Sequence record: PZ379549.1
Strand: one strand, 5' to 3'
Length of the DNA: 46,532 nucleotides
Source: a phage
Numbering within the stretch: position 1 is the first letter of the stretch; every line of letters starts with the position of its first letter. Of this stretch, positions 1 through 37,558 are shown one piece after another. Position numbers and translations under genes: made by a program. The notes under the pieces were generated by a model. That model searched no databases, was not told where the DNA came from, and saw only the letters and a program-made list of their open reading frames with translations.

Positions 1-8
1 GTTGCCAT
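1..8 (-). CDS. 5' end (start codon) of tape measure gene, if window ends are joined
   Basis: Minus-strand ATG at 8..6 preceded by GGAGGA (17..12); in frame with ORF open to nt 46532; in-frame stop upstream at 44..42. Confidence 0.5.
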
Positions 9-99
9 TTTTCCTCCACTAGTAGCTAATAGCACCAAAAGTCAAAAACAATAAATCTCAGTATGTATAATACATTAACACTTCGACTTTGGGGGTAAA

Positions 100-585
100 A
101 TGTTTAAATATTTGTTTGATTATGATGGAATGAAATTGATATGGAAAAACCCAACATCACCTAGATTCACAAAGGGCGACGTTGCGGGAACTAAGCATAA
201 GAGAGGATACATTCAAGTTTGCTTTAATAGGAAGCTATACCTTGCTCATAGGATAATATGGGAGATGCATCATGGCGAGATACCTGAAGGGATGCAGATT
301 GACCATGTAAATCAGGACAAATCAGATAACAGGATTTCAAACCTAAGGCTAGTCACGCAGCAGGAAAACAAAAAGAACAAACCAAAGCAAGTAAGAAACT
401 CTAGCGGAGTTAATGGTGTATCTTGGAATAAATCAAATGGAAAATGGCAGGTAAGGATAGGTGTAGATGGAAAAGATGTTCATCTTGGGTATTTTGATAA
501 CATTTCAGACGCTAAAAAAGCAAGATTCGATGCTGACTTTAGATTTAAATACCATGAAAATCACGGTAACAAAAAGCGCCAGTAG
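100..585 (+). CDS. HNH homing endonuclease with AP2-like DNA-binding domain (free-standing)
   Basis: 161-aa ORF; HNH-type block DHVNQDKSDNRISNLRLVTQQEN followed by AP2-like block GVSWNKSNGKWQVRIGVDGKDVHLGYF; antisense between tail chaperone and tape measure genes; paralog at 28631-29110. Confidence 0.7.
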   Translation: MFKYLFDYDGMKLIWKNPTSPRFTKGDVAGTKHKRGYIQVCFNRKLYLAHRIIWEMHHGEIPEGMQIDHVNQDKSDNRISNLRLVTQQENKKNKPKQVRNSSGVNGVSWNKSNGKWQVRIGVDGKDVHLGYFDNISDAKKARFDADFRFKYHENHGNKKRQ

Positions 586-599
586 GCGCTTTATTTTTT
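576..599 (+). terminator. rho-independent terminator after HNH gene
   Basis: GCGCC-agta-GGCGC stem-loop followed by TTTATTTTTT. Confidence 0.55.
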
Positions 600-713
600 A
601 TCTCTCATCATATCTAAGGGCTTTAGCTTCCAGCACCCTGATATCGTTAAGTACCATTTCGTCTATCATCTGACTTCGTAAACATCAAACAAGAAAATTC
701 AAGGCAGTTGTAA

Positions 714-1007
714 TCAAGACCTGTGGCGCCGCATGTACCAACCCTCCACTGAGTAGACATGGCGCAGTACAAATCCCAACTTTGCATCATATGCCTCATC
801 GAAGTATAACTCTTCAGGCTCCTCACCGTCATAGTCTGATCTTTTCATTCCAATCGCTTCGAGTTCAGCGTCAGTTGGTGGTGATTGGTACTGCAAAAAT
901 ACAGCGCGCCTTAAATTTTTACCCTTTGTCCCGCTAACGCCTTCATGTATGAATCCATTAATGACGGAACTGCGGCAGGGAAAAGGTTCGCGAACTCTTC
1001 TACGTTC
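714..1007 (-). CDS. -1 frame extension of tail assembly chaperone (gpT-like part of a G-T fusion)
   Basis: -1 frame open from 1007 to stop at 714, overlapping the 3' end of the chaperone ORF; acidic C-terminal segment; position between major tail protein and tape measure. Confidence 0.4.
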   Translation of the reverse strand, partial: ERRRVREPFPCRSSVINGFIHEGVSGTKGKNLRRAVFLQYQSPPTDAELEAIGMKRSDYDGEEPEELYFDEAYDAKLGFVLRHVYSVEGWYMRRHRS

Positions 1008-1264
1008 TCATCGTTAAATGGTTCTTCTAAATCCCAATCAGAGCAGATTTCGTTAATCAATTCTTTGGTGCTGAAGTTCTCACGGTTAAGAATCTCCTGC
1101 AACTCAGATGATTTCTTGTGCTTAACTGTTAGCACTACTTCTGCATCATCGCCATTAGCTAACTGGAACTTAACTGGAAGTTTAAAGTCAGGCAGCGCCT
1201 TAAGTGAAAGTTTAAATTTTGCCATCTCGTTATCTCCTTTGTTTGTGTTTGTTGATTGTAGCAT
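911..1264 (-). CDS. tail assembly chaperone (lambda gpG-like)
   Basis: 117-aa acidic ORF directly downstream of major tail protein and upstream of tape measure, with overlapping -1 frame ORF. Confidence 0.55.
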   Translation of the reverse strand: MLQSTNTNKGDNEMAKFKLSLKALPDFKLPVKFQLANGDDAEVVLTVKHKKSSELQEILNRENFSTKELINEICSDWDLEEPFNDENVEEFANLFPAAVPSLMDSYMKALAGQRVKI

Positions 1265-1272
1265 AAAGTGCT

Positions 1273-1300
1273 ATCAATAAAAAACCCTCCGAAGAGGGTT
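1273..1300 (-). terminator. rho-independent terminator after major tail protein gene
   Basis: Minus-strand RNA AACCCUC-UUCG-GAGGGUU followed by UUUUAUUGAU. Confidence 0.7.
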
Positions 1301-1304
1301 AATT

Positions 1305-1964
1305 TTATACCAGTTCAGAAGCTACAGAACTCAGCCTACCACGGATAGATACTGCGATGGATACCGTTTCGATTTCGTTGACACCAATGCTAGGGGTGTC
1401 GTTGAAAGCGATAGTGCCAGACTGAAGGCGCATCTCACTAGCGCGAGGTACGAACAGACGAATAGCAACAACAGTACCAGCTTCGTCATAGTTACGCAGA
1501 ATCGGATATACCGGGTTGGTGTATTCGTGCGCAAACGTGTAGGTGTTGGTTACCGCAGACTTATAAGTTGGAATCTGCTGCTCACGATCATCAGATAAAC
1601 ACTGGAAGTTAACGAACTGCTGTTCGCCGCCATCAGTGGATACGTCCTGAACACAAGGAACTTCAAACCAAGTAAGAATCTTAACAACTTCACCAGTTAA
1701 GCCAGCTGGGAACTTAGTGGTGTTGGAGGTATCAATACCTTCAACAGTTACGGTTGAACCAGATACCTCGGTAACGCGAACTTGCTTATCAGCCAGCAGG
1801 GTCGAAGCTGAGCTGGTAAATAGCAGGTAATCACCGCGTGCAATATCAGCAACGCTGGACAAAGTTAAAACAGGAGTAACAGCATTGGAAATTGCAGTTA
1901 CGTCGATAGCAGCTCCGCGAGAGCCTTCTACGAACACCTGGGTGCCGTTTGATAAGTGAGCCAT
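1305..1964 (-). CDS. major tail (tube) protein
   Basis: 219-aa ORF with AAGGA RBS; immediately upstream of G/GT chaperones and followed by strong terminator. Confidence 0.6.
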   Translation of the reverse strand: MAHLSNGTQVFVEGSRGAAIDVTAISNAVTPVLTLSSVADIARGDYLLFTSSASTLLADKQVRVTEVSGSTVTVEGIDTSNTTKFPAGLTGEVVKILTWFEVPCVQDVSTDGGEQQFVNFQCLSDDREQQIPTYKSAVTNTYTFAHEYTNPVYPILRNYDEAGTVVAIRLFVPRASEMRLQSGTIAFNDTPSIGVNEIETVSIAVSIRGRLSSVASELV

Positions 1965-1979
1965 GTATTTTTCCTTTTG

Positions 1980-2381
1980 TTAGTCTAGACGAACATAAAA
2001 ACGAACCGGGATAAACCACCCAGACTTGGATTTGATAACGGGGTTAACAACTCCAGACTCATAAATGGTCCCGCTGTCAAGCATTGTACCATCAACGATA
2101 GATTCTGCCAATTTATTAGCGATTTGTCTGGGCCTGTCAATTCCAGTACCAGGACTGAAGAATACTGAAATTTGAACCATGCCTACGTAGTATTTGCACT
2201 TCCTGCTTAATCCGTAGGTTACGGTGTCAACCTCTGTATAGTCGTACTTAAGCCAGATTGATCCATCGGCAGGAGGAGTAAACTTACAGTTCTCCCAAGC
2301 GACTGGATATCTGACCGGAAATTCATTTACCAACAAATCGTTGACGAATTTCCTTGCTGCTAATGATAATTCATATTGCAC
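1980..2381 (-). CDS. putative tail terminator / neck protein
   Basis: 133-aa ORF between neck block and major tail protein; function inferred from position only. Confidence 0.35.
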   Translation of the reverse strand: MQYELSLAARKFVNDLLVNEFPVRYPVAWENCKFTPPADGSIWLKYDYTEVDTVTYGLSRKCKYYVGMVQISVFFSPGTGIDRPRQIANKLAESIVDGTMLDSGTIYESGVVNPVIKSKSGWFIPVRFYVRLD

Positions 2382-3927
2382 GACGTAGCCTCCTCTACAG
2401 CTTCCTGGAAATACCTGCCCAACCTTGCTTGCACCACGCCAAGAACGCCAGCCGGAGCCTGATTCGAAGCCCCATACTCAAGGTCAGCAGGCGTAATCAA
2501 GCCTGTTAGTTATGTAGATAACACTTTGTCGCTGGTGAATTAGCCACAGCTCGAGCTTGCCTTGCCAGATACCTTTTTGTATGCTCCACCTGTTTTGATC
2601 GTAATCATTCAGAGACTGAGCTGAGCTGGGGAGTTCGCTGTAATCTGCCAGTTAGCCTTAAACCTACCAGTATCAACAGGCGATAAATCCACGATGGCGT
2701 TAGCAGCCTTAATTACCGTGTCGGCAGACAACAATATCAGAGAAGTTATCATCAGCTCTATCAATCCAATCAGCAATAGCTATTCGTCAAAGGTAGCCAA
2801 CACCACCAATATTTCTAGCCATAGGTAGCCACCCTCCTTAGAATTGGTCTGTAAGCCAACTACTAGTTCCTGTTGGTTTGACTGGCCTCGGGTCGACTAC
2901 AGTGTAAGTTTCATCTTCAACTATAATCCTGATAGCCCTGCAAGATTGCGGACTTCAGACAGTGAAAATTCCACGCTTGTCACCAAACTGGATATATTCG
3001 CCATCAATATCTCTGCGTTTTAATCTCCCTCACCAAGCCCCTTGATTGAAATGCAGTTGCCGCCAGCTACAGGAACCTCAACGCCGTCAACGATTTCGAC
3101 ACCATCCTTTACCAGTATTCATCTCGTGAATGTACCATCTGCCATCACTAAAGATAGTTGATGCCCGTGCGCATTAATTGATTCTACTTGGGAGTAATTC
3201 ATTGGCAACCGCACTCACCGCCAGCAGCGGACGTAATCAAGCCAAATCCGCCGCCTTTCTTGCGCAGGAGATTCCTAGTAAAGTGCGGCCCCACGGCGTA
3301 GCTGATCAATGATGACCTTGAGTTTGCGAGGTGGATATCATAAGCTGATAGAAAATTCACCGCTCAGCGGAGTAACTTGCCACCTTCTATGGCCATATAT
3401 CATCCAGCGACTTCATTCTCGCCCTTAAGCGCGCCATCAAGAAAGGCATCATGTGCAGATGTGTATAGTCCGACAGCGCTTTATAAGCATCATGCACCAA
3501 ACTTACTGGTCGCAGATGTATAGACTTAGCTAACTCAAGCCATACGTCCAGCGATTCGTCATCTGGAATATTCTTAAGAGCAGGAACCAGCGACTTGCAT
3601 AAAGGCTAATGCTTGTATCGTTCATAAAACCTCCATACAATAAACGGACGCCGAAGCGCCCTGTTTGGTTATTTGTACTCGTTGACCAGTCTCAGCCTCG
3701 GCAGATGGTTTTCGGTTCTTTGCGCTTATATTCTTGCTAACAACTTCTTGCGACGATTTGTTTGGTTGCCTTGGTGTCACCCTCAACCTGGTGAGTTGAC
3801 CCTCTGCGATTAAACGCTTGAGCCCAGTCGCAAATTACCTCAACCTCGAATGAGTGTCACCAGGCAAATATTTCTCACCTTTGTAAACGATAATCGTGCA
3901 CGCTCCAGTGTGTTCTAAACGAATCAT
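2382..3927 (-). pseudogene. frame-disrupted block of head-tail connector/neck genes (at least 4 genes)
   Basis: No ORF >=60 aa on either strand over about 1.5 kb; good RBS+ATG starts at 3927 (AAGGAG) and 3625 (GGAGG, ATGA overlap with upstream stop) each run into stops within 15-30 codons while adjacent frames continue protein-like sequence. Confidence 0.45.
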
Positions 3928-9246: not shown

Positions 9247-10824
9247 GATGCCAGCGAGGCGCATCATCCTCGATTTAGGGTCTTCTGCAATGTTCAGTAC
9301 CAGGTTTACGGCCATTGTCAAACAGTCTATCTGGTCATCGTGAACATGTGAATCATCTGCCGTGAATGCCGCAATCTCCGTTAGCAAGCCATTAAGCCAA
9401 GTAGCAGACTCCGGAAGGATTACGTTACCAGCTTTAATCTGCGGCAATGCACTCATTACGCGAGTCAGCTTATCGTTATCCGGAACGTACGGCTCGATAG
9501 GCGTTCGCATAACCCTTCCGGCTGATTGAATCAGGCCAATACCAGAGGCTTTCTTCTCGATGATGATTTTACGAAGGATGCCATCTATCTGATTGGATGC
9601 CCTAGCCATCTTCTCGAAATCCAATAACTCAGCCTCGAGCTCAGGAGCTTCAAATTTACCGCGCCGCTGGTCAAGCAGATAAATCTTCCCATCCTTATAA
9701 CCCCATAGCTGCATGACGCTAAAGTCGCTGTAACTTTTGGTTGTCATCGCAGTATCAAGGACCATAAACCTGTAATCGTACTTAGCTGGCGGTCGCAGAG
9801 TGTCGCTAATGCGTTGAAGCCAGTCTACGTTAATCAGGTTGCCGCCAAGTGCTACTGGTTCTTGCTGATACTGGCTAAGGAATGTATAGCTATCAGAATC
9901 CCACATTGCAACTAGGTCGTGAACAGATTCCTTGCCAGGGAAATAGCTATAGTACCTAACACCATCACGCTCAATATATTCGCTTGATAGAACGTCATCA
10001 ATGAATTGCCGCTTAATCCAGTCAGGAAGCGTGTCGACGTAATCCTCAGTTACGAGCGCCGGTATCTTAATCAAGTCGAAGCTAATACCCATACCGCCAT
10101 TCATCATGAACCACGTACTATCATTCACATGAAGGCGCTGTTGGATAGAGATAATCGGCGTCGCCTTTCCTTTTACGGAGCTCGCCCTACGAGAGCGTAT
10201 TGTATTCTTTAGCATCACGTGATTGTTAGCGCGAAAAACAGCAGAAAGCATGTCGGCTGGTTTGTCAAAATCATCTAACAGAACCGCTCCGCTATATGAA
10301 TCCGTTATATATCCACCCCTTGCGCCGGTTATTTGGCCTCCAGCAGCCTTAGATATTGACTCAAACCGAACCTTACCAGACTCATCCAGAACTTGAAGCT
10401 CATCATCCTTGCACGTACCGAACTTGCATGGGAATAACTCCTGGAACTCAACAGACTTAATCAGGTCCCGAACTCGCTTGGAGTTACGCTTAACAAGTGA
10501 GTCGGCAAACGAGATGTTCAGGTTCCTGACCTTCTTTAGCTTAACCATCGAGTAGGCCGGGAAGTGAATTGAAGCTATCTCTGTTTTTCCACTTCCTGGA
10601 GCGATGTTAATGATTGTGTCCTTGCGCTCACCAGCGATAATCTCGTCAATGATTCGACACAGGTATTTGTGATGCCAGTTAGGGATGTATCGCTCGCCCT
10701 GGGTAAGTTGGAACCACACCCGCAAGAATCCCTCGAAACTATGAGTGGATATAGCCTTAACTGCCATCTTTTCTGCTGGCGTCATTTCTTCCCATACTAA
10801 TGTTTCACTCATCCTACTCTCCAA
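9241..10824 (-). CDS. terminase large subunit
   Basis: 527-aa ORF with ATPase and nuclease-like halves; immediately upstream of portal module. Confidence 0.85.
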   Translation of the reverse strand: MESRMSETLVWEEMTPAEKMAVKAISTHSFEGFLRVWFQLTQGERYIPNWHHKYLCRIIDEIIAGERKDTIINIAPGSGKTEIASIHFPAYSMVKLKKVRNLNISFADSLVKRNSKRVRDLIKSVEFQELFPCKFGTCKDDELQVLDESGKVRFESISKAAGGQITGARGGYITDSYSGAVLLDDFDKPADMLSAVFRANNHVMLKNTIRSRRASSVKGKATPIISIQQRLHVNDSTWFMMNGGMGISFDLIKIPALVTEDYVDTLPDWIKRQFIDDVLSSEYIERDGVRYYSYFPGKESVHDLVAMWDSDSYTFLSQYQQEPVALGGNLINVDWLQRISDTLRPPAKYDYRFMVLDTAMTTKSYSDFSVMQLWGYKDGKIYLLDQRRGKFEAPELEAELLDFEKMARASNQIDGILRKIIIEKKASGIGLIQSAGRVMRTPIEPYVPDNDKLTRVMSALPQIKAGNVILPESATWLNGLLTEIAAFTADDSHVHDDQIDCLTMAVNLVLNIAEDPKSRMMRLAGIK

Positions 10825-10828
10825 ACTA

Positions 10829-11353
10829 TTACAGCTTACTAATCACAGACTCCAGCGCTTCCTTCATCGTATCGACGTCGTTAGCTGAAGAGTTGTTGCT
10901 GATGGTAATCTCCTGCGGCTTGTCGATTCCAAGCTCTTTGGAAATCATGCCAGGGTTAATGATGCCAGATGCTGCAAGCTGGTATTTCTGCTCGCGAATC
11001 ACGGAATCAATGAACGCAATCACCTCATCATAACCAGCCGACTTCCTCCATTTCTCGATGGCGCTATGGGTGACACCGCAGTAAAGGCAGAATCCGGTTA
11101 GCGTGAAGACTCGTGGTTTGTGCACCAGGCTCTCTTTTACCACACCCTGGAAGCTGGCTGTCTCGATTGCCTTGATTGCCTGGTTCTCAGCCCATGAGAA
11201 GTATTTCACGGCGAATTCAAATAGCTGTTCGGGTGTCATGCTTCGGTTTTTGGCTAGCGTTGTAATGTCTGAGTACTTTTTATTGTACATGGCTTTAAAG
11301 TTGCCAGAGCGGACCTTTTCTTGCGCCTGACTGGTGAAGTTTTCGTCTTTCAT
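10829..11353 (-). CDS. putative terminase small subunit
   Basis: 174-aa ORF immediately upstream of TerL, AAGGAGG RBS; assignment by position. Confidence 0.5.
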   Translation of the reverse strand: MKDENFTSQAQEKVRSGNFKAMYNKKYSDITTLAKNRSMTPEQLFEFAVKYFSWAENQAIKAIETASFQGVVKESLVHKPRVFTLTGFCLYCGVTHSAIEKWRKSAGYDEVIAFIDSVIREQKYQLAASGIINPGMISKELGIDKPQEITISNNSSANDVDTMKEALESVISKL

Positions 11354-11890: not shown

Positions 11891-11966
11891 TGGTGTTCCG
11901 CACTGGACTCGAACCAGTAACTAAGACTTAGGAGGTCTTTGCGTTATCCTGTTACGCCAGCAGAAC
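11891..11966 (-). tRNA. tRNA-Arg (anticodon CCU, reads AGG)
   Basis: Hand-folded 76-nt cloverleaf: acceptor GTTCTGC/GCGGAAC, D-arm GCGT-AACAGGATA-ACGC, anticodon arm AAGAC-CTCCTAA-GTCTT (U33, CCT, A37), variable AGTT, T-arm ACTGG-TTCGAGT-CCAGT, discriminator A, encoded CCA. Confidence 0.8.
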
Positions 11967-12912: not shown

Positions 12913-12990
12913 ATCTCTATCTCTCTTCGTTGTTTGATGGGTTAATTATATGGCATCCATGCCTGTCATGTTTAGCAATTCGTGCTATCC
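12913..12990 (-). promoter_or_regulatory. box-hairpin-(-10)-leader unit
   Basis: Box 12971-12990, hairpin GGCATGGATGCC, ATATAATT, CCCATCAAACAACGAAGAGAGA, ATG 12912. Confidence 0.4.
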
Positions 12991-14942: not shown

Positions 14943-15017
14943 ATCCTCTTTTGCTTTGCTTCAATAAGGCCACTATATCAAATGGCCTTGCGGAAGGTTT
15001 AGCAATTCGTGCTATTC
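14943..15017 (-). promoter_or_regulatory. box-hairpin-(-10)-leader unit
   Basis: Box 14998-15017 abutting stop of 15016-15201, hairpin AAGGCCA..TGGCCTT, TATAGT. Confidence 0.4.
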
Positions 15018-15634: not shown

Positions 15635-16156
15635 CTATTTAGTCTCCTTAATCATTTCTTGGTATGCGTTAATCATTGATACTGCACCCTTAAGTTCATC
15701 ACCTTCAAGACCAGCGACGCTTGGTGATAGTTTCAACAATCGAGCCTTGAACCTTTCAATGGTAGCCCCCTCCTTCTCTTGCTCTGCTTTGCTTCTTGAG
15801 CCGGATTTTACAGCGCCAGGAACCAGGCTAAGTGATGCGCAGTATGTCTCACTCTCGCCCTCAAAGTCGGTAAAACTAAGTGAGAACCTTGAGCGCACGT
15901 CAGCCGCCTTAATCTCAGGCATTCGGCTTACGGTGTTTGAAACGTATGACGCTTTTAGTTTTGGCATGTGGTATTCACCACCAGGTAGAACCTCCTCACC
16001 ACTTAGCGATACGAACGTCTCACGACTCATGCCGAAGTATTGACGAGCAATCATGGTCACAGGGACTGTGCACACTTTGTCTTCTGACTTGAGCGCCTGA
16101 CTCGCCATGTATCGAATGATTTCACCCAAACTTACTGCTTCTTTATGTTCTGACAT
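15635..16156 (-). CDS. hypothetical protein (first gene of leftward unit)
   Basis: 173-aa ORF adjacent to AT-rich control region. Confidence 0.45.
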   Translation of the reverse strand: MSEHKEAVSLGEIIRYMASQALKSEDKVCTVPVTMIARQYFGMSRETFVSLSGEEVLPGGEYHMPKLKASYVSNTVSRMPEIKAADVRSRFSLSFTDFEGESETYCASLSLVPGAVKSGSRSKAEQEKEGATIERFKARLLKLSPSVAGLEGDELKGAVSMINAYQEMIKETK

Positions 16157-16277
16157 ATTCGTTACTCCTGATTGGTTGCTCTTCGTTAAGATGAAACCAT
16201 GGTATCATGAATATACGCGTTATCAAGTGTTATGTTGTGTTTATATCTGCATTGGTTACGCTTTTTGACCTCTCAGC

Positions 16278-16291
16278 CCAGCTATAGCTGG
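16278..16291. promoter_or_regulatory. perfect 14-bp palindrome CCAGCTATAGCTGG
   Basis: Read directly; core AGCTATAGCT recurs at 35217-35226. Confidence 0.4.
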
Positions 16292-16407
16292 TGTAATTAC
16301 CCTGTGTAAGATTTTACGCGGATTCGCCGGGGGTATGCATATGTATCTATATAGATAAAATTAGTAGTTTTCATAGAAAAACTATCGACCCATCCATACG
16401 ACCAATC

Positions 16408-16495
16408 TACACCATATACATACATATATATAATAATAATAATAATATAGTAAAAGGTTGATATATATAGATATTATTATGTAACCATTGCGTAA
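16408..16495. repeat. AT-rich control module copy A, includes (TAA)5 microsatellite at 16431-16447
   Basis: About 85 percent identical to 35357-35439 by eye. Confidence 0.6.
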
Positions 16496-16642
16496 TCTAG
16501 CGTGGTAGGCGTGTATGATTCTTCGGAAGCGCACCTCATATACACACCATAACTTCGATAACGTGTATATCCAAATTGGCTCAGCAAGAATCAAAATCAA
16601 CTTGTATGGTAGTCCATCCACCATTCATTCACCCCACATCGA

Positions 16643-16743
16643 TCATTGCAAATTCTGCAACAATCAAAAACATCATTGCATTCGATGCAATATTGCTATA
16701 TGTGCAATAATGATGATGAATCATTGCAATAGCTGCAACAATC
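16643..16743. promoter_or_regulatory. operator/iteron-like array of TTGCAA-family sites
   Basis: 23-bp direct repeats TCATTGCAA-N4-TGCAACAATC at 16643-16665 and 16721-16743 flanking inverted repeat ATTGCAT-tcg-ATGCAAT at 16675-16691. Confidence 0.4.
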
Positions 16744-16755
16744 TATAAATCCAAC

Positions 16756-16830
16756 GAATAGCACTTTTTGCTAATGCACAATCATTAGTAAGTTGCTACT
16801 ATGTATTCATCGAAACGGTGCTGGACTCTG
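16756..16830 (+). promoter_or_regulatory. box-(-10)-leader unit at head of rightward small-ORF cluster
   Basis: Variant box 16756-16776, then TATGTATT, CATCGAAACGG. Confidence 0.35.
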
Positions 16831-17005
16831 AGTCACTTCCGAAAGGAACCAAAAAGAGTGAACGACACCGCGCAATGTGAGGAAGCGTTACCTTACCCAC
16901 CAAAGCGCCTTGCGGGTCCTTTTGATAGGATGCCGGGCCGGGTTTAAAATCCCGAGTTGTAGTGAGTACGTTGAAGAGATTTCGATAACAAGAAAACATA
17001 GAGAG

Positions 17006-17176
17006 ATGACAGTGATGACAGAAAAAACAGTTGGTTACAGTTACAGTAATGGTCATTGGGTTGTTGAGTTAAAAGGGTTTCACAAGTACCCAAAATTAAG
17101 TTTCTTCATGACAGAAGATGATGCAAAGTCTTGGGTTCAGGTTCTTAAAGAAAGGTGGTTTAAAAATGAAACTTAA
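17006..17176 (+). CDS. hypothetical protein
   Basis: ORF 16877-17176 trimmed to internal ATG. Confidence 0.3.
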   Translation: MTVMTEKTVGYSYSNGHWVVELKGFHKYPKLSFFMTEDDAKSWVQVLKERWFKNET

Positions 17177-17351
17177 AGACGAAGCATTTGAGCAATTAAA
17201 GCAGGAATGTGCGCTGACTGGATTGAACAGTGACTATACTGATATGGTTTTACGCGGACGCATCGATATCGACCTTGCTAAGCAATTCCAGTCAGATGAT
17301 GAATATCTGTGCTGCGATGGCCTTGGCTGCGACGAATGTTTACCCTGGTAA
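17166..17351 (+). CDS. hypothetical protein (Cys-rich C-terminus)
   Basis: ORF 17118-17351 trimmed to ATG 17166 with GGTGG RBS. Confidence 0.4.
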   Translation: MKLKDEAFEQLKQECALTGLNSDYTDMVLRGRIDIDLAKQFQSDDEYLCCDGLGCDECLPW

Positions 17352-18700: not shown

Positions 18701-18760
18701 TAATGCATTATAAGCGGCTATTGATATAATGGCCGCTCAGAAACAATGCGGAGAGAAGTA
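18686..18760 (+). promoter_or_regulatory. box-hairpin-(-10) unit
   Basis: Variant box 18686-18703, hairpin GCGGC..GCCGC enclosing TATAAT. Confidence 0.4.
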
Positions 18761-20023
18761 ATGTTTGATTTCAATGAAGATAAACTATCTGTTGAGCAAG
18801 TTATGGCGATCGCTGCCAATGACAACCTACCACCGCTTCGCGTGGCTATTAATGCCAATGGCTATCGACAGTCTCAATCGTTCTGGAAAGCACCTGTCGA
18901 GATTGATACAGGTAATGATAAGTATCCAGTAATCTCACTCGGTAATGATATTGATGTTGTTGGTAAGCTATCGGCTAATATCGCTCGCTCGGTTCAGTTC
19001 CCTGAGTCGTCAGCTTACATGCACTTTCTTGGTTGTGTTTCTGCTGCAATGCTTGGGCGTTTTACTGTCGAGTATCATGGAACCCAACAGCCAACATCTT
19101 TGTACGTGGTAACAAGTCAGCCGCCTTCAACTGGTAAATCAGCCATTAACTCGCTATCAATTGCGCCGATGATTGCTGAGACTGAGCGGTTGAATGAAGT
19201 ACGTAAACGTGATCGAAAAAAGATTATGGCTAAACTGTCCGCTCTGGCTAAAGAGATGAAGCAGGAGAAATCACCTTCTGAAATGGCTTCACTTTTTGAG
19301 GAGAAGGAGGATTTAGAGGAGAAGCTCGAGAAGCTATGCGATATAGTATTCCCTGTCTCCGATACTACTCCGGAAGGTCTTGCGCGAATCAACAATCGCC
19401 AGGGTAATTTTGCGGTAATCTCTGATGAGGCTACTAGCGTCAACTCACTGTTAGGCATGACTTACGGTGATGGCTCGAAGAAAACGAACAGCGAGCTCGT
19501 GCTGAAAGCATGGGATGCAGGTAATGTGTCAATTGCCCGTGCGAACGCAGAAAATAACATGAGCTTTGTGGCTATGGGATGCATCTCCGTAATTGCTCAG
19601 GATGAAACAATCAATGCCATTATGAATGCTGGTGCGCGTGGTATTGGTGTATCTGAGCGTTTCCTTCTGGTGCGTGAAAAATCATTTCTTGGCGACCGTG
19701 TATTTGTTGATGAAAATGGTGATTCAACCTATGAGGCTATTGATGGCGGCCTGAAAGCAGACTATTTCCGTCTTGTTCATGAGATTATGAATGAAGTTGA
19801 AGTGAAACTTACTGTAAGCGCGTCATCAATGCGTTACCTTAACCGCGCTCGTCAAGAGATGGAGCCTCATCTTGGTGATGGTGGCAAGTATTCTCACACA
19901 ATGTTGCGCGGTGCTCTTGGTAAGTTTGATAAGCAAGCAATCCGCATCGCTTCTGTTCTGCACGTAATTCGTAACTGGTTCTCACCAGCCGGATCCAGCC
20001 CTCAAGAAGTCAAGAGAGATTGA
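18761..20023 (+). CDS. P-loop NTPase, DUF3987-like (replication-associated?)
   Basis: Walker A-like SQPPSTGKS and Walker B-like FAVISDEATS; ATG 18761 with GGAGAGAAG RBS (track start 18746). Confidence 0.45.
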   Translation: MFDFNEDKLSVEQVMAIAANDNLPPLRVAINANGYRQSQSFWKAPVEIDTGNDKYPVISLGNDIDVVGKLSANIARSVQFPESSAYMHFLGCVSAAMLGRFTVEYHGTQQPTSLYVVTSQPPSTGKSAINSLSIAPMIAETERLNEVRKRDRKKIMAKLSALAKEMKQEKSPSEMASLFEEKEDLEEKLEKLCDIVFPVSDTTPEGLARINNRQGNFAVISDEATSVNSLLGMTYGDGSKKTNSELVLKAWDAGNVSIARANAENNMSFVAMGCISVIAQDETINAIMNAGARGIGVSERFLLVREKSFLGDRVFVDENGDSTYEAIDGGLKADYFRLVHEIMNEVEVKLTVSASSMRYLNRARQEMEPHLGDGGKYSHTMLRGALGKFDKQAIRIASVLHVIRNWFSPAGSSPQEVKRD

Positions 20024-20033
20024 ACTGGATACA

Positions 20034-20246
20034 ATGCAGGAAGCGGTTATGATTTTCAACGAACTAAGCAAGACTTATTTATCATCCGCTAGTGCTGCTG
20101 GTCATGCTGGTGACAATGCCGAGATGAACAAGCTGGTTGATATCCTGATTAAGCAGGGCAAGAATGGTAAAGGTGTTGTTGGTGTTCGCTCGTTGTATGA
20201 GGCTGCACGCAAGGTTAAACCTTTTGAAGCTCAGGCTGGAATGTAA
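20034..20246 (+). CDS. hypothetical protein
   Basis: 70-aa ORF. Confidence 0.4.
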   Translation: MQEAVMIFNELSKTYLSSASAAGHAGDNAEMNKLVDILIKQGKNGKGVVGVRSLYEAARKVKPFEAQAGM

Positions 20247-22083: not shown

Positions 22084-22160
22084 TTTTGAATCCTCTGTTG
22101 TTTTCGATGTAGTAATTATGCCGGATTACTCCGGCGATTGTTTAGCAATTCGTGCTATTT
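22084..22160 (-). promoter_or_regulatory. box-hairpin-(-10)-leader unit
   Basis: Box 22140-22160 (encodes kinase C-terminus NSTNC), hairpin GCCGGAttacTCCGGC 22120-22135, ATAATTAC, CATCGAAAACAACAGAGGA. Confidence 0.45.
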
Positions 22161-28102: not shown

Positions 28103-28492
28103 ATGTGTGAAATTGACAAGCGAACTATCAACGGCAATAACGGAACCATCCGCACGCAAGACAAGAAACAGCGCAAACGACCGTCAGGCTACTACGTATT
28201 GAAAGATGAAGTAAAGGCTGGGCTAAGAGCTCGTCTGGAGATGGTTCTTGACTTCTACGGCACGAAGGCCAATATCGCCAAGCAGTTAAATGTATCTCAC
28301 CAGACTGTAGAACAATGGTTTGATCGCGGTATGATTTCGGCTCGAGGCGCCCAGCGAGCACATAATGCGTACAAGAGAAATAAGGGAGGGTTCCGAGCTA
28401 CTTTCTGCCGACCAGACCTGCAATTTGACGGTAACGGTAAGCCTCTGACGCTTACGATGCAAGAAGCGCCACATGCTACGCGTGGTTACTGA
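28103..28492 (+). CDS. HTH DNA-binding protein (candidate regulator)
   Basis: HTH-like GTKANIAKQLNVSHQTVEQWF; first gene of rightward unit; a +1 frame continues 36 codons past the stop. Confidence 0.45.
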   Translation: MCEIDKRTINGNNGTIRTQDKKQRKRPSGYYVLKDEVKAGLRARLEMVLDFYGTKANIAKQLNVSHQTVEQWFDRGMISARGAQRAHNAYKRNKGGFRATFCRPDLQFDGNGKPLTLTMQEAPHATRGY

Positions 28493-36596: not shown

Positions 36597-37558
36597 TGCC
36601 TCAAGGAATATTGATTGACCTTAATGATGGAAGGCCACCTATGGAAATAACGGCAGGATTAAGAGCGCCCGCTGTGACTGGCTCAATAAATACCAATGGA
36701 CTTTCGACGCCAGCATCATCATGGGATTTTGGTTTAACCATGTCCCCAGGCTCAACAGCATTCTGCCTTCCAACAAAGGCTGTGCACGTTGACGCTTATG
36801 ATGTTGTACCTGAAGTTTATTATATGAACGGGTTCCAGAAGGTAAATGACGGAACTGGCAGGATAACGCTTAGTGACTTCAATGGCGCAAGAGGTCGTAT
36901 AATTGACTTTGCTGGAAATTGCTTTGAAATACTCCCAGCCTCGTCTTCATCAAGCCCAGGAATACTGGTTGAGAACTCAACTGACTTTTTGGCAATTTCA
37001 AGCAATTCGCGGTTAATGTCTGCGGCATGGGTTGGTGGAATACAGGTTAACGGCGCCGCCTCACTACCAGTCAGTGGGATTCCATTTGGTAAATGGGATA
37101 ACCCAAACGTTTCTCTGGAGAGCGACGGTAATACAATTTGGTGCCGCAACATAAACTACAGCGGCATAGATGACGTTGCAGCAAGTACTTACGTACAGTT
37201 AGTGATATTCAGGAATGACCCTCCAGTAGCTGGCCCAGGACTCACAATGTCTAATAGTTCTGGACAGATTGTTTTTTCAAGCGTCAGGCGACCGTTCGTG
37301 CTTGGTGGCTTTATACAAATAACCAATGGTTTCCAGTCAATAAATGGAGGGTTCTTCCCACTGCTCAGGTGCGGCGCTACAACAAGAGTTACTGGAGGGT
37401 ATAACAACTTAAGGTACAAGGGAATATGCATGTCTGGTGGTGCCGTAAGGGCAGTTCCAGGCACTGTGATAGGGAACTACTCAACGCAGACGGGGGCCCA
37501 ATTCCCATTCGACACAAACATATCAATGGCTCTACCATTCATACCAAACTTCTACTAA
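36596..37558 (+). CDS. hypothetical tail-associated protein
   Basis: 321-aa Gly/Ser/Asn-rich ORF convergent with J; TAATG overlap with cor stop. Confidence 0.4.
   Translation: MPQGILIDLNDGRPPMEITAGLRAPAVTGSINTNGLSTPASSWDFGLTMSPGSTAFCLPTKAVHVDAYDVVPEVYYMNGFQKVNDGTGRITLSDFNGARGRIIDFAGNCFEILPASSSSSPGILVENSTDFLAISSNSRLMSAAWVGGIQVNGAASLPVSGIPFGKWDNPNVSLESDGNTIWCRNINYSGIDDVAASTYVQLVIFRNDPPVAGPGLTMSNSSGQIVFSSVRRPFVLGGFIQITNGFQSINGGFFPLLRCGATTRVTGGYNNLRYKGICMSGGAVRAVPGTVIGNYSTQTGAQFPFDTNISMALPFIPNFY

Follow-up and report, generated by a model that had tools for sequence, protein, structure and literature searches.

Results

Genomic setting of the repeat array

The window (the whole stretch of DNA that was analyzed, 46,532 nucleotides, record PZ379549.1) belongs to a T1-like siphophage of the Drexlerviridae, Braunvirinae. 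Its leftward gene cluster, on the left, and its rightward cluster of small ORFs, on the right, are separated by an 850-bp noncoding region that houses a compact repeat array (16641-16743). The leftward cluster starts with the gene for a 173-aa DUF7174 protein, and the terminase small and large subunit genes and the portal gene lie 5 to 9 kb to the left of the array region. Of the genes next to the array, some code for DUF7174 and DUF7421 proteins, and the others matched no family. Used as the sole query in a single-protein search, the DUF7174 protein matched only 5 known phages, and a comparison of it with PDB sequences gave no meaningful match. The region around the array was closest to that of Escherichia phages ES and AN_ECEAS (98% identity), with weaker matches to Rtp-, Rogue1-, and T1-type phages. 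When the array region was sought in 5,426 complete E. coli genomes, no copy was found, and there was no sign of borrowing involving a satellite or prophage.

Some other features of the surroundings were recorded. A tRNA-Arg gene (anticodon CCT; 11891-11966, minus strand) separates the early leftward cluster from the terminase genes, an arrangement seen in other T1-like phages too. An Rfam search of the whole window at gathering thresholds returned nothing beyond this tRNA, a search of 16100-17100 at E ≤ 1 gave no match, and the predicted RNA fold of the 5' leader (16809-17010) was no better than that of shuffled sequence (z = -0.56). The leader and the first rightward ORF (16810-17170) had no homologue in 19 aligned relatives; phage IMM-001 matched 16701-17209 at 94%, and a short motif, GAGTCACTTCCGAA, is common to the leader of the window and that of Rtp. 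Farther right, the DUF3987 helicase ORF (18746-20023) codes for 425 aa versus 522 to 528 aa in T1, TLS, and ES, and a 70-aa ORF (20034-20246) starts 10 nt past its stop; the helicase gene looks to be split by a stop codon, frameshift, or sequencing error.

Architecture and uniqueness of the array

The array consists of four 15-bp palindromes of the form TTGCW-N5-TGCAA, located at 16646, 16676, 16693 (with one mismatch), and 16724 (sites S1 to S4; Table 1). Their centers are spaced by 30, 17, and 31 bp, and each palindrome carries AATCA/CAATC flanks. The outer sites, S1 and S4, are 25-bp units with the pattern (G/A)ATCA-TTGCA-N5-TGCAA-CAATC and are direct repeats of each other; a repeat search reported this direct-repeat family as 29 nt long with 83% identity. 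An earlier note, made from the letters of this DNA, had described two direct repeats with a 4-nt spacer, a 17-bp inverted repeat between them, and further TGCAATA half-sites. All of these were recovered: the direct repeats are where the note had placed them, the inverted repeat is a perfect palindrome (ATTGCATTCGATGCAAT, 16675-16691) inside S2, and the additional half-sites are found at 16686 and 16703. Taken together, S2 and S3 form an imperfect palindrome of about 43 bp centered on GCAAT/ATTGC.

Table 1. Coordinates of the array and of related features in the window
Feature	Position	Strand	Sequence or remark
Small terminase gene, putative reader of the array	10829-11353	-	5.3 kb downstream in packaging direction
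173-aa DUF7174 protein, first gene of leftward cluster	15635-16156	-
AT-rich tract, nested inverted repeats	16400-16480	none	ATAATAATAATAATAATATA...TATATATAGATATTATTAT
AATCAAAATCA doublet and putative first-cut zone	16589-16610	-	MSK and SU57 ends by homology
Site S1, 25-bp composite unit	16641-16665	+	GATCA-TTGCAAATTCTGCAA-CAATC; palindrome plus AATCA/CAATC flanks
Direct repeat, copy 1	16643-16665	+	TCATTGCAA-ATTC-TGCAACAATC
Site S2	16671-16691	none	CATCA-TTGCATTCGATGCAA-T
Site S3, one mismatch to palindrome	16693-16711	none	TTGCTATATGTGCAA-TAAT
Site S4, second 25-bp composite unit	16719-16743	+	AATCA-TTGCAATAGCTGCAA-CAATC
Direct repeat, copy 2	16721-16743	+	TCATTGCAA-TAGC-TGCAACAATC
T1-like "DR box"	16758-16774	+	ATAGCACTTTTTGCTAA; matches TLS consensus aaATAGCACnnnTTGnTAAAA (PMC11447400)
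Putative core promoter of rightward cluster	16774-16802	+	-35-like ATGCAC (16774-16779), 17 nt, -10 TACTAT (16797-16802)
Rightward small-ORF cluster	from ~17006	+

The palindromes are confined to this locus. Exact copies of TTGCW-N5-TGCAA occur three times in the 46.5 kb, all within the array, as do the exactly three copies of ATCATTGCA in the window. The number of exact palindromes expected by chance was between 0.05 (analytic) and 0.16 (first-order Markov simulations), and in 400 Markov simulations, neither a count of three or more nor a pair within 100 nt ever arose. The earlier note had allowed that the half-sites might be no more frequent than the AT-rich composition would give. They clearly are more frequent, since the 101 nt of the array hold 9 half-sites compared with 3.5 per kb in the window overall, a density about 25 times the average. 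The exact sites of T1 likewise form one cluster, with nothing comparable elsewhere in the T1 genome, so that in both genomes all exact sites lie at a single locus, as would be expected of a pac (packaging initiation) signal. A scan of IMG/VR for two perfect sites 10 to 40 nt apart proved to be of little use: it returned at least 120 loci, of which only 2 were T1-like and nearly all were tandem repeats with a 10-nt period in unrelated coding DNA.

Two ORFs are predicted to overlap the array (16382-16624, minus strand, and 16515-16748, plus strand), and the earlier note had suspected both of being spurious. Our comparison bears out this suspicion. Both ORFs are hit by 1-nt indels in relatives, including an indel within 16515-16748 in the 98% identical phage ES and further ones in other relatives, and most of the related GenBank records have no annotated gene across the array. 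Because relatives break both ORFs and mostly annotate nothing here, we conclude that the ORFs are spurious and the array is noncoding.

DR box and putative promoter

The earlier note had seen a box promoter just downstream of the array. This element is real and is a T1-like DR box, one of 14 copies in the window (0.06 expected), all of which are oriented with local transcription. The T1-like 21-nt repeat was described for TLS, and its function was listed as an open question by the authors of that study (PMC11447400). The DR box (for example, the copy beside the array and those at 12972-12988, 14999-15015, and 22142-22158) also fits the MarA/SoxS/Rob marbox, AYnGCACnnWnnRYYAAAY (PMC3709825). 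Allowing at most one mismatch, this consensus had 15 hits in the window versus 1.07 expected; 3 of the hits were perfect, and 12 were DR boxes. T1-like promoters may recruit Rob, MarA, or SoxS, and a link between DR box and marbox was not found in the literature searched. Immediately next to the box lies a putative core promoter for the rightward cluster. A consensus promoter scan did not call it; at the same alignment columns, relatives carry (A/T)TGACA or AAGACA, a 17-nt spacer, and TATAGT, CATAAT, or TATTAT.

Conservation in relatives and distribution among lineages

Conservation was measured in 19 relatives belonging to four subfamilies or genera. Across the array and the box (16625-16775), each position was identical in 15 to 17 of the 19 relatives, versus 5 to 6 in the adjacent coding DNA. 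The internal spacing of 30, 17, and 30 bp was invariant among relatives, and the window carries one extra base in the last spacer. The most conserved site was S4, found in 17 of 19 relatives, and T1 also has the S4-type composite unit (AATCATTGCATTCTAAGCAACAATC). The right half of S1, TGCAACAATC, was kept in all Braunvirinae, Rogunavirinae, and Nouzillyvirus relatives, while its left half was variable. In S2, the half-sites were kept, and the central 5 bp varied (TTCGA, TCTGA, TCAGA, ATCGA, or AACGA). T1 has two TTGCA-type sites 30 bp apart. The general picture in the earlier note, an organized half-site array in noncoding DNA, stands: the array is unique, is kept beyond the flanking genes, and has a fixed internal spacing. 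A second peak of conservation coincides with the AT-rich tract, where 12 of 13 aligned relatives were identical at 16425-16475; T1, TLS, and Shelby have AT-rich tracts in the corresponding position. The tract of the window may be a site of DNA bending or unwinding, or it may be a promoter region.

For a wider survey of lineages, IMG/VR contigs were recovered via the small terminase. Pairs of sites 29 to 31 bp apart were found in the same untranslated region in Tunavirus, Braunvirinae/Rogunavirinae, Webervirus (with the variant site TTTCA-N5-TGCAA), and two other lineages. The TTGCA palindromes were absent from the TLS type and from lineages L171, L177, L178, L183, L188, L181, and L196, and phages of the TLS type and several other lineages had no TTGCA sites anywhere.

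Three further repeats were observed during this survey. The TLS type (L030/L023, 49796-49826; L193) carries two overlapping 16-bp palindromes, TAGACC-N4-GGTCTA, beside the box, and this pair occupies the place of S4 of the window. An inverted repeat, TATTCC-N6-8-GGAATA (ATTCC...GGAAT), is located between the array and the box in T1, Webervirus, and some other lineages (T1, L029, 48750-48836; Shelby, L151, ~60-110; L171, L178, and L198) and is absent from the window. Finally, one metagenomic Drexlerviridae lineage has a second perfect TTGCA-N5-TGCAA pair, 31 bp apart, inside structural genes about 4 kb downstream of the small terminase gene (L207, 14042-14087; L222, 9678-9723; L197, 14058-14103).

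The flanks of the palindromes were more widely shared. In the 170 nt upstream of the box in 16 lineages, AATCA was the top enriched 5-mer, with 59 occurrences observed versus 6.4 expected, and it was strand biased, with the complement TGATT occurring 23 times. Two or more copies were found in 13 of the 16 lineages. In the window, AATCA occurs in the palindrome flanks and in the doublet at 16589-16599, which lies in the putative cut zone. On this evidence, the motif common to the family is a one-strand cluster of AATCA, and the TTGCA palindromes are present in some lineages only. The family-wide presence of AATCA agrees with the family-wide conservation of the small terminase.

Genome ends reported for relatives

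The genome ends of relatives were placed on the window by homology mapping. Five ends reported in five relatives (T1, Rtp, MSK, SU57, and TLS) lie in a stretch of about 150 bp to which the array belongs. The RefSeq record of T1 has an annotated terminal repeat at 1..2800, and its position 1 reads g/TTGCATGGTGTGCAAC...GATTGTTGCTTAGAATGCAATGAT, which is the same motif and opens with the first of the two TTGCA sites. Position 1 of the Rtp GenBank record splits the S3 homologue at its center. The forward-strand terminus of MSK determined by PhageTerm is at position 36862 of MW057918 (PMC8421802); it aligns to 16609 of the window, 33 nt left of S1, and points leftward. For SU57, the record starts at an end called by PhageTerm, at which coverage also shows a step (PMC7718038); the junction of this record aligns to 16591/16592. 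The pac end of TLS was placed by restriction mapping (PMC11447400) and falls in the homologous untranslated region, inside the AATCA repeats. The ends thus span about 150 bp and do not all lie on one side of the array: that of T1 is at the right edge, that of Rtp at the center, and those of MSK and SU57 are to the left. The authors of the SU57 study located the pac of T1-like phages in this untranslated region, with its sequence not identified (PMC7718038), and T1-like genomes are conventionally opened here because the pac end is here. By homology with the ends of the relatives, a physical end at the array, as a pac would have, is predicted for the window.

Small terminase as the putative reader

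The small terminase gene of the window matched PHROG 606, terminase small subunit (E = 2e-57), and the Pfam family GP3_package (E = 1e-12), and its product was homologous to the P22 gp3 structure 3P9A (E = 1.4e-13). Near-identical small terminases were found in lineages with and without the palindromes (L179 versus L171/L177 and L230 versus L183/L188). Since lineages lacking the palindromes have similar small terminases, the palindromes are not an obligatory terminase recognition element; covariation with the small terminase was negative for the TTGCA palindromes and compatible for the AATCA repeats. We also considered an exact copy of the 12-nt P22 pac core, AAGATTTATCTG (13 nt with the preceding G), at 9676-9687 on the minus strand in the large terminase gene, for which about 0.006 occurrences were expected. 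Because it was absent from all 311 of 311 related loci, we judged it to be a probable coincidence.

Discussion

Tentatively, we interpret the array as part of the pac region of a T1-like headful phage. This reading rests on the co-location of the array with the mapped ends, and we hold it with somewhat less than even confidence. The location of pac in T1-like phages is already known, and what is new, within the literature searched, is the sequence architecture described here. Under this interpretation, a ring-shaped small terminase of the P22 gp3 type would assemble on the array late in infection and position the large terminase, which would make the first cut about 35 to 50 bp to the left, at ~16590-16610. 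The first headful would then be packaged toward lower coordinates, via the gene for the 173-aa protein to the terminase genes, and the array would stay on the nonencapsidated side of the first cut. We infer both the binding of terminase to the array and the type of repeat that gives specificity: the AATCA repeats are the likelier candidates for terminase contact, whereas some lineages may have added the TTGCA palindromes for the terminase or for an accessory dimeric factor. In an elaborated form, pac would have two layers, with an ancient, family-wide AATCA array read by a P22-type ring and, in some lineages, four strictly spaced palindromes bound by a separate dimeric phage or host factor that gates the first cut or couples it to the shutoff of the adjacent early promoter. 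We regard this elaboration as quite improbable; if true, it would add a form of regulated pac that has not been described with terminases of the P22 type.

The earlier note had proposed that the array consists of repressor operators or origin iterons. The underlying observation, that these are organized half-sites of a protein-binding type, was upheld, whereas both specific readings fit worse than pac and are weaker explanations. In the regulatory version, a dimeric protein on the four palindromes (a Cro-like helix-turn-helix [HTH] protein, a small early protein, or a host factor) would activate or silence the rightward cluster, which we consider unlikely. Sites of 15 bp with dyad symmetry are found more typically with dimeric HTH regulators than with terminase rings, and the array, with its conserved half-sites and the variable center of S2, has the look of a classic HTH dimer footprint within the 14- to 20-bp range of operator dyads. 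In Braunvirinae, the DR box and promoter lie immediately beside the array. However, the palindromes overlap no -35, -10, or start: they are upstream of the rightward start by about 66 to 167 bp, with the leftward promoter candidate about 420 bp away, and only 1 of the 14 box promoters has such sites. Moreover, the array and the box are 13 nt apart in Braunvirinae but about 110 nt apart in T1 and Webervirus, and in T1 the array is followed on its far side by a second box; an operator or activator site would hold register, so this drift argues against a promoter-coupled role. The only evident HTH protein of the window is Cro/CI-like (28103-28492, a homologue of T1 ST23, with a subthreshold match to Pfam P22_Cro at E = 5e-5); its counterparts in T1, TLS, and Shelby are annotated as transcriptional regulators, and TLS, which has the different palindrome pair and no TTGCA sites, also has a different recognition helix (NLKTVWGW versus S-x-Q). 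Against this candidate, no regulator gene is adjacent to the array, the promoter of the HTH gene itself had no such site in four genomes, and the helix classes did not partition with the sites in 47 paired contigs: sites were present with SHQTVEQW and absent with SHQTIQQW, and were present with THQTIQQW and absent with THQVIQQW. When ORF families in the leftward cluster and from the untranslated region to the terminase gene were compared, none tracked the palindromes.

That none of the phage proteins examined tracked the palindromes leaves room for a host protein, and a host regulator or nucleoid protein could dock on the array and bend the DNA at pac or at the promoter. The half-sites, (G/A)TTGCA(T/A), resemble the CytR octamer, GTTGCATT. 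Such docking is nevertheless highly improbable, as the hosts (E. coli and Shigella) are the same whether or not a lineage has the palindromes, and the E. coli genomes that were screened have no copy of the array. We also give little credence, if slightly more, to a replication origin in which the 25-bp direct repeats and AATCA would serve as iterons for an initiator of the phage, such as the DUF3987 helicase or the primase, and the AT-rich tract would unwind. The array does contain repeats (two 25-bp direct repeats and 4 to 6 strand-biased AATC(A) repeats) near a conserved AT-rich tract, in a large noncoding region between divergent early operons and 2 kb to the left of a replication helicase gene; the same untranslated region of T1 holds further tandem repeats (CGATTAACA three times and AAATTACGCC twice), and the origin has not been identified in T1-like phages (PMC11447400, PMC7718038). 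Nonetheless, the AT-rich tract is 160 to 240 bp from the array with the mapped cut zone in between, the repeats are neither beside nor inside any candidate initiator gene, and the turn in GC skew at 16 to 17 kb is explained by the switch in gene strand. Nor would an origin be expected to coincide with the genome ends reported for five relatives.

The pac signal of T1, a classic phage that is notorious as a laboratory contaminant, is not defined at the sequence level in the literature searched. A conserved repeat architecture at the mapped ends offers a concrete target for footprinting, would allow Drexlerviridae genome records to be opened rationally, and could be used in pac-plasmid transduction tools. 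It also raises the question of how such an array is read by a terminase ring of the P22 type whose gene lies far away. Even if the pac reading is wrong, the array remains the most conserved noncoding element of this phage group.

Comparison with known operators and packaging signals

Compared with the OR/OL operators of lambdoid phages, the array shares the presence of several dyad-symmetric sites of 15 to 17 bp in a divergent intergenic region. It differs from them in that the sites do not overlap a core promoter, there is no adjacent repressor or Cro gene, the sites are at a single locus, and the phage is virulent. In the cosB of lambda (R3-I1-R2-R1), small-terminase sites are ordered at fixed spacing next to the cut, with some inverted and a bend between them. 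The array resembles cosB in its ordered, fixed-spacing sites near the putative cut. However, lambda is a cos phage with precise nicks, its cosB is on the packaged side, and an IHF site is required, whereas no convincing IHF site was seen in the array.

With P22, the phage shares a homologous small terminase (gp3) and headful packaging with an imprecise series of cuts around the site. In P22-like phages, pac is located within the small terminase gene; that of P22 is one asymmetric sequence of 22 bp, and its core, AGATTT, was used by the TLS authors to place the TLS pac (PMC11447400). The complement of AATCA reads TGATT/GATTT on the packaging strand. In contrast to P22, the signal in the array would be about 150 bp of repeats located 5.3 kb upstream of the small terminase gene. 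In the P1 pac, TGATCA/G hexamers spread across about 160 bp flank the cut and are read by a packaging protein, and the short repeat (A/G)ATCA of the array is comparable in size and partly in sequence. The P1 hexamers hold Dam sites that gate cleavage; the array differs in having a single GATC (16641-16644), and the terminase family is different as well. In the headful Bacillus phage SPP1, the small terminase binds repeated short boxes in a nonencapsidated pacL beside the cut region pacC. The array similarly lies on the nonpackaged side, 35 to 50 bp from mapped ends. Unlike in the array, the SPP1 boxes are not 15-bp palindromes, its small terminase belongs to a different family, and its pacR is inside the terminase gene. 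Overall, by analogy, the proposed working of the array would be like the pacL/pacC arrangement of SPP1 or like the P1 pac with its clustered short repeats.
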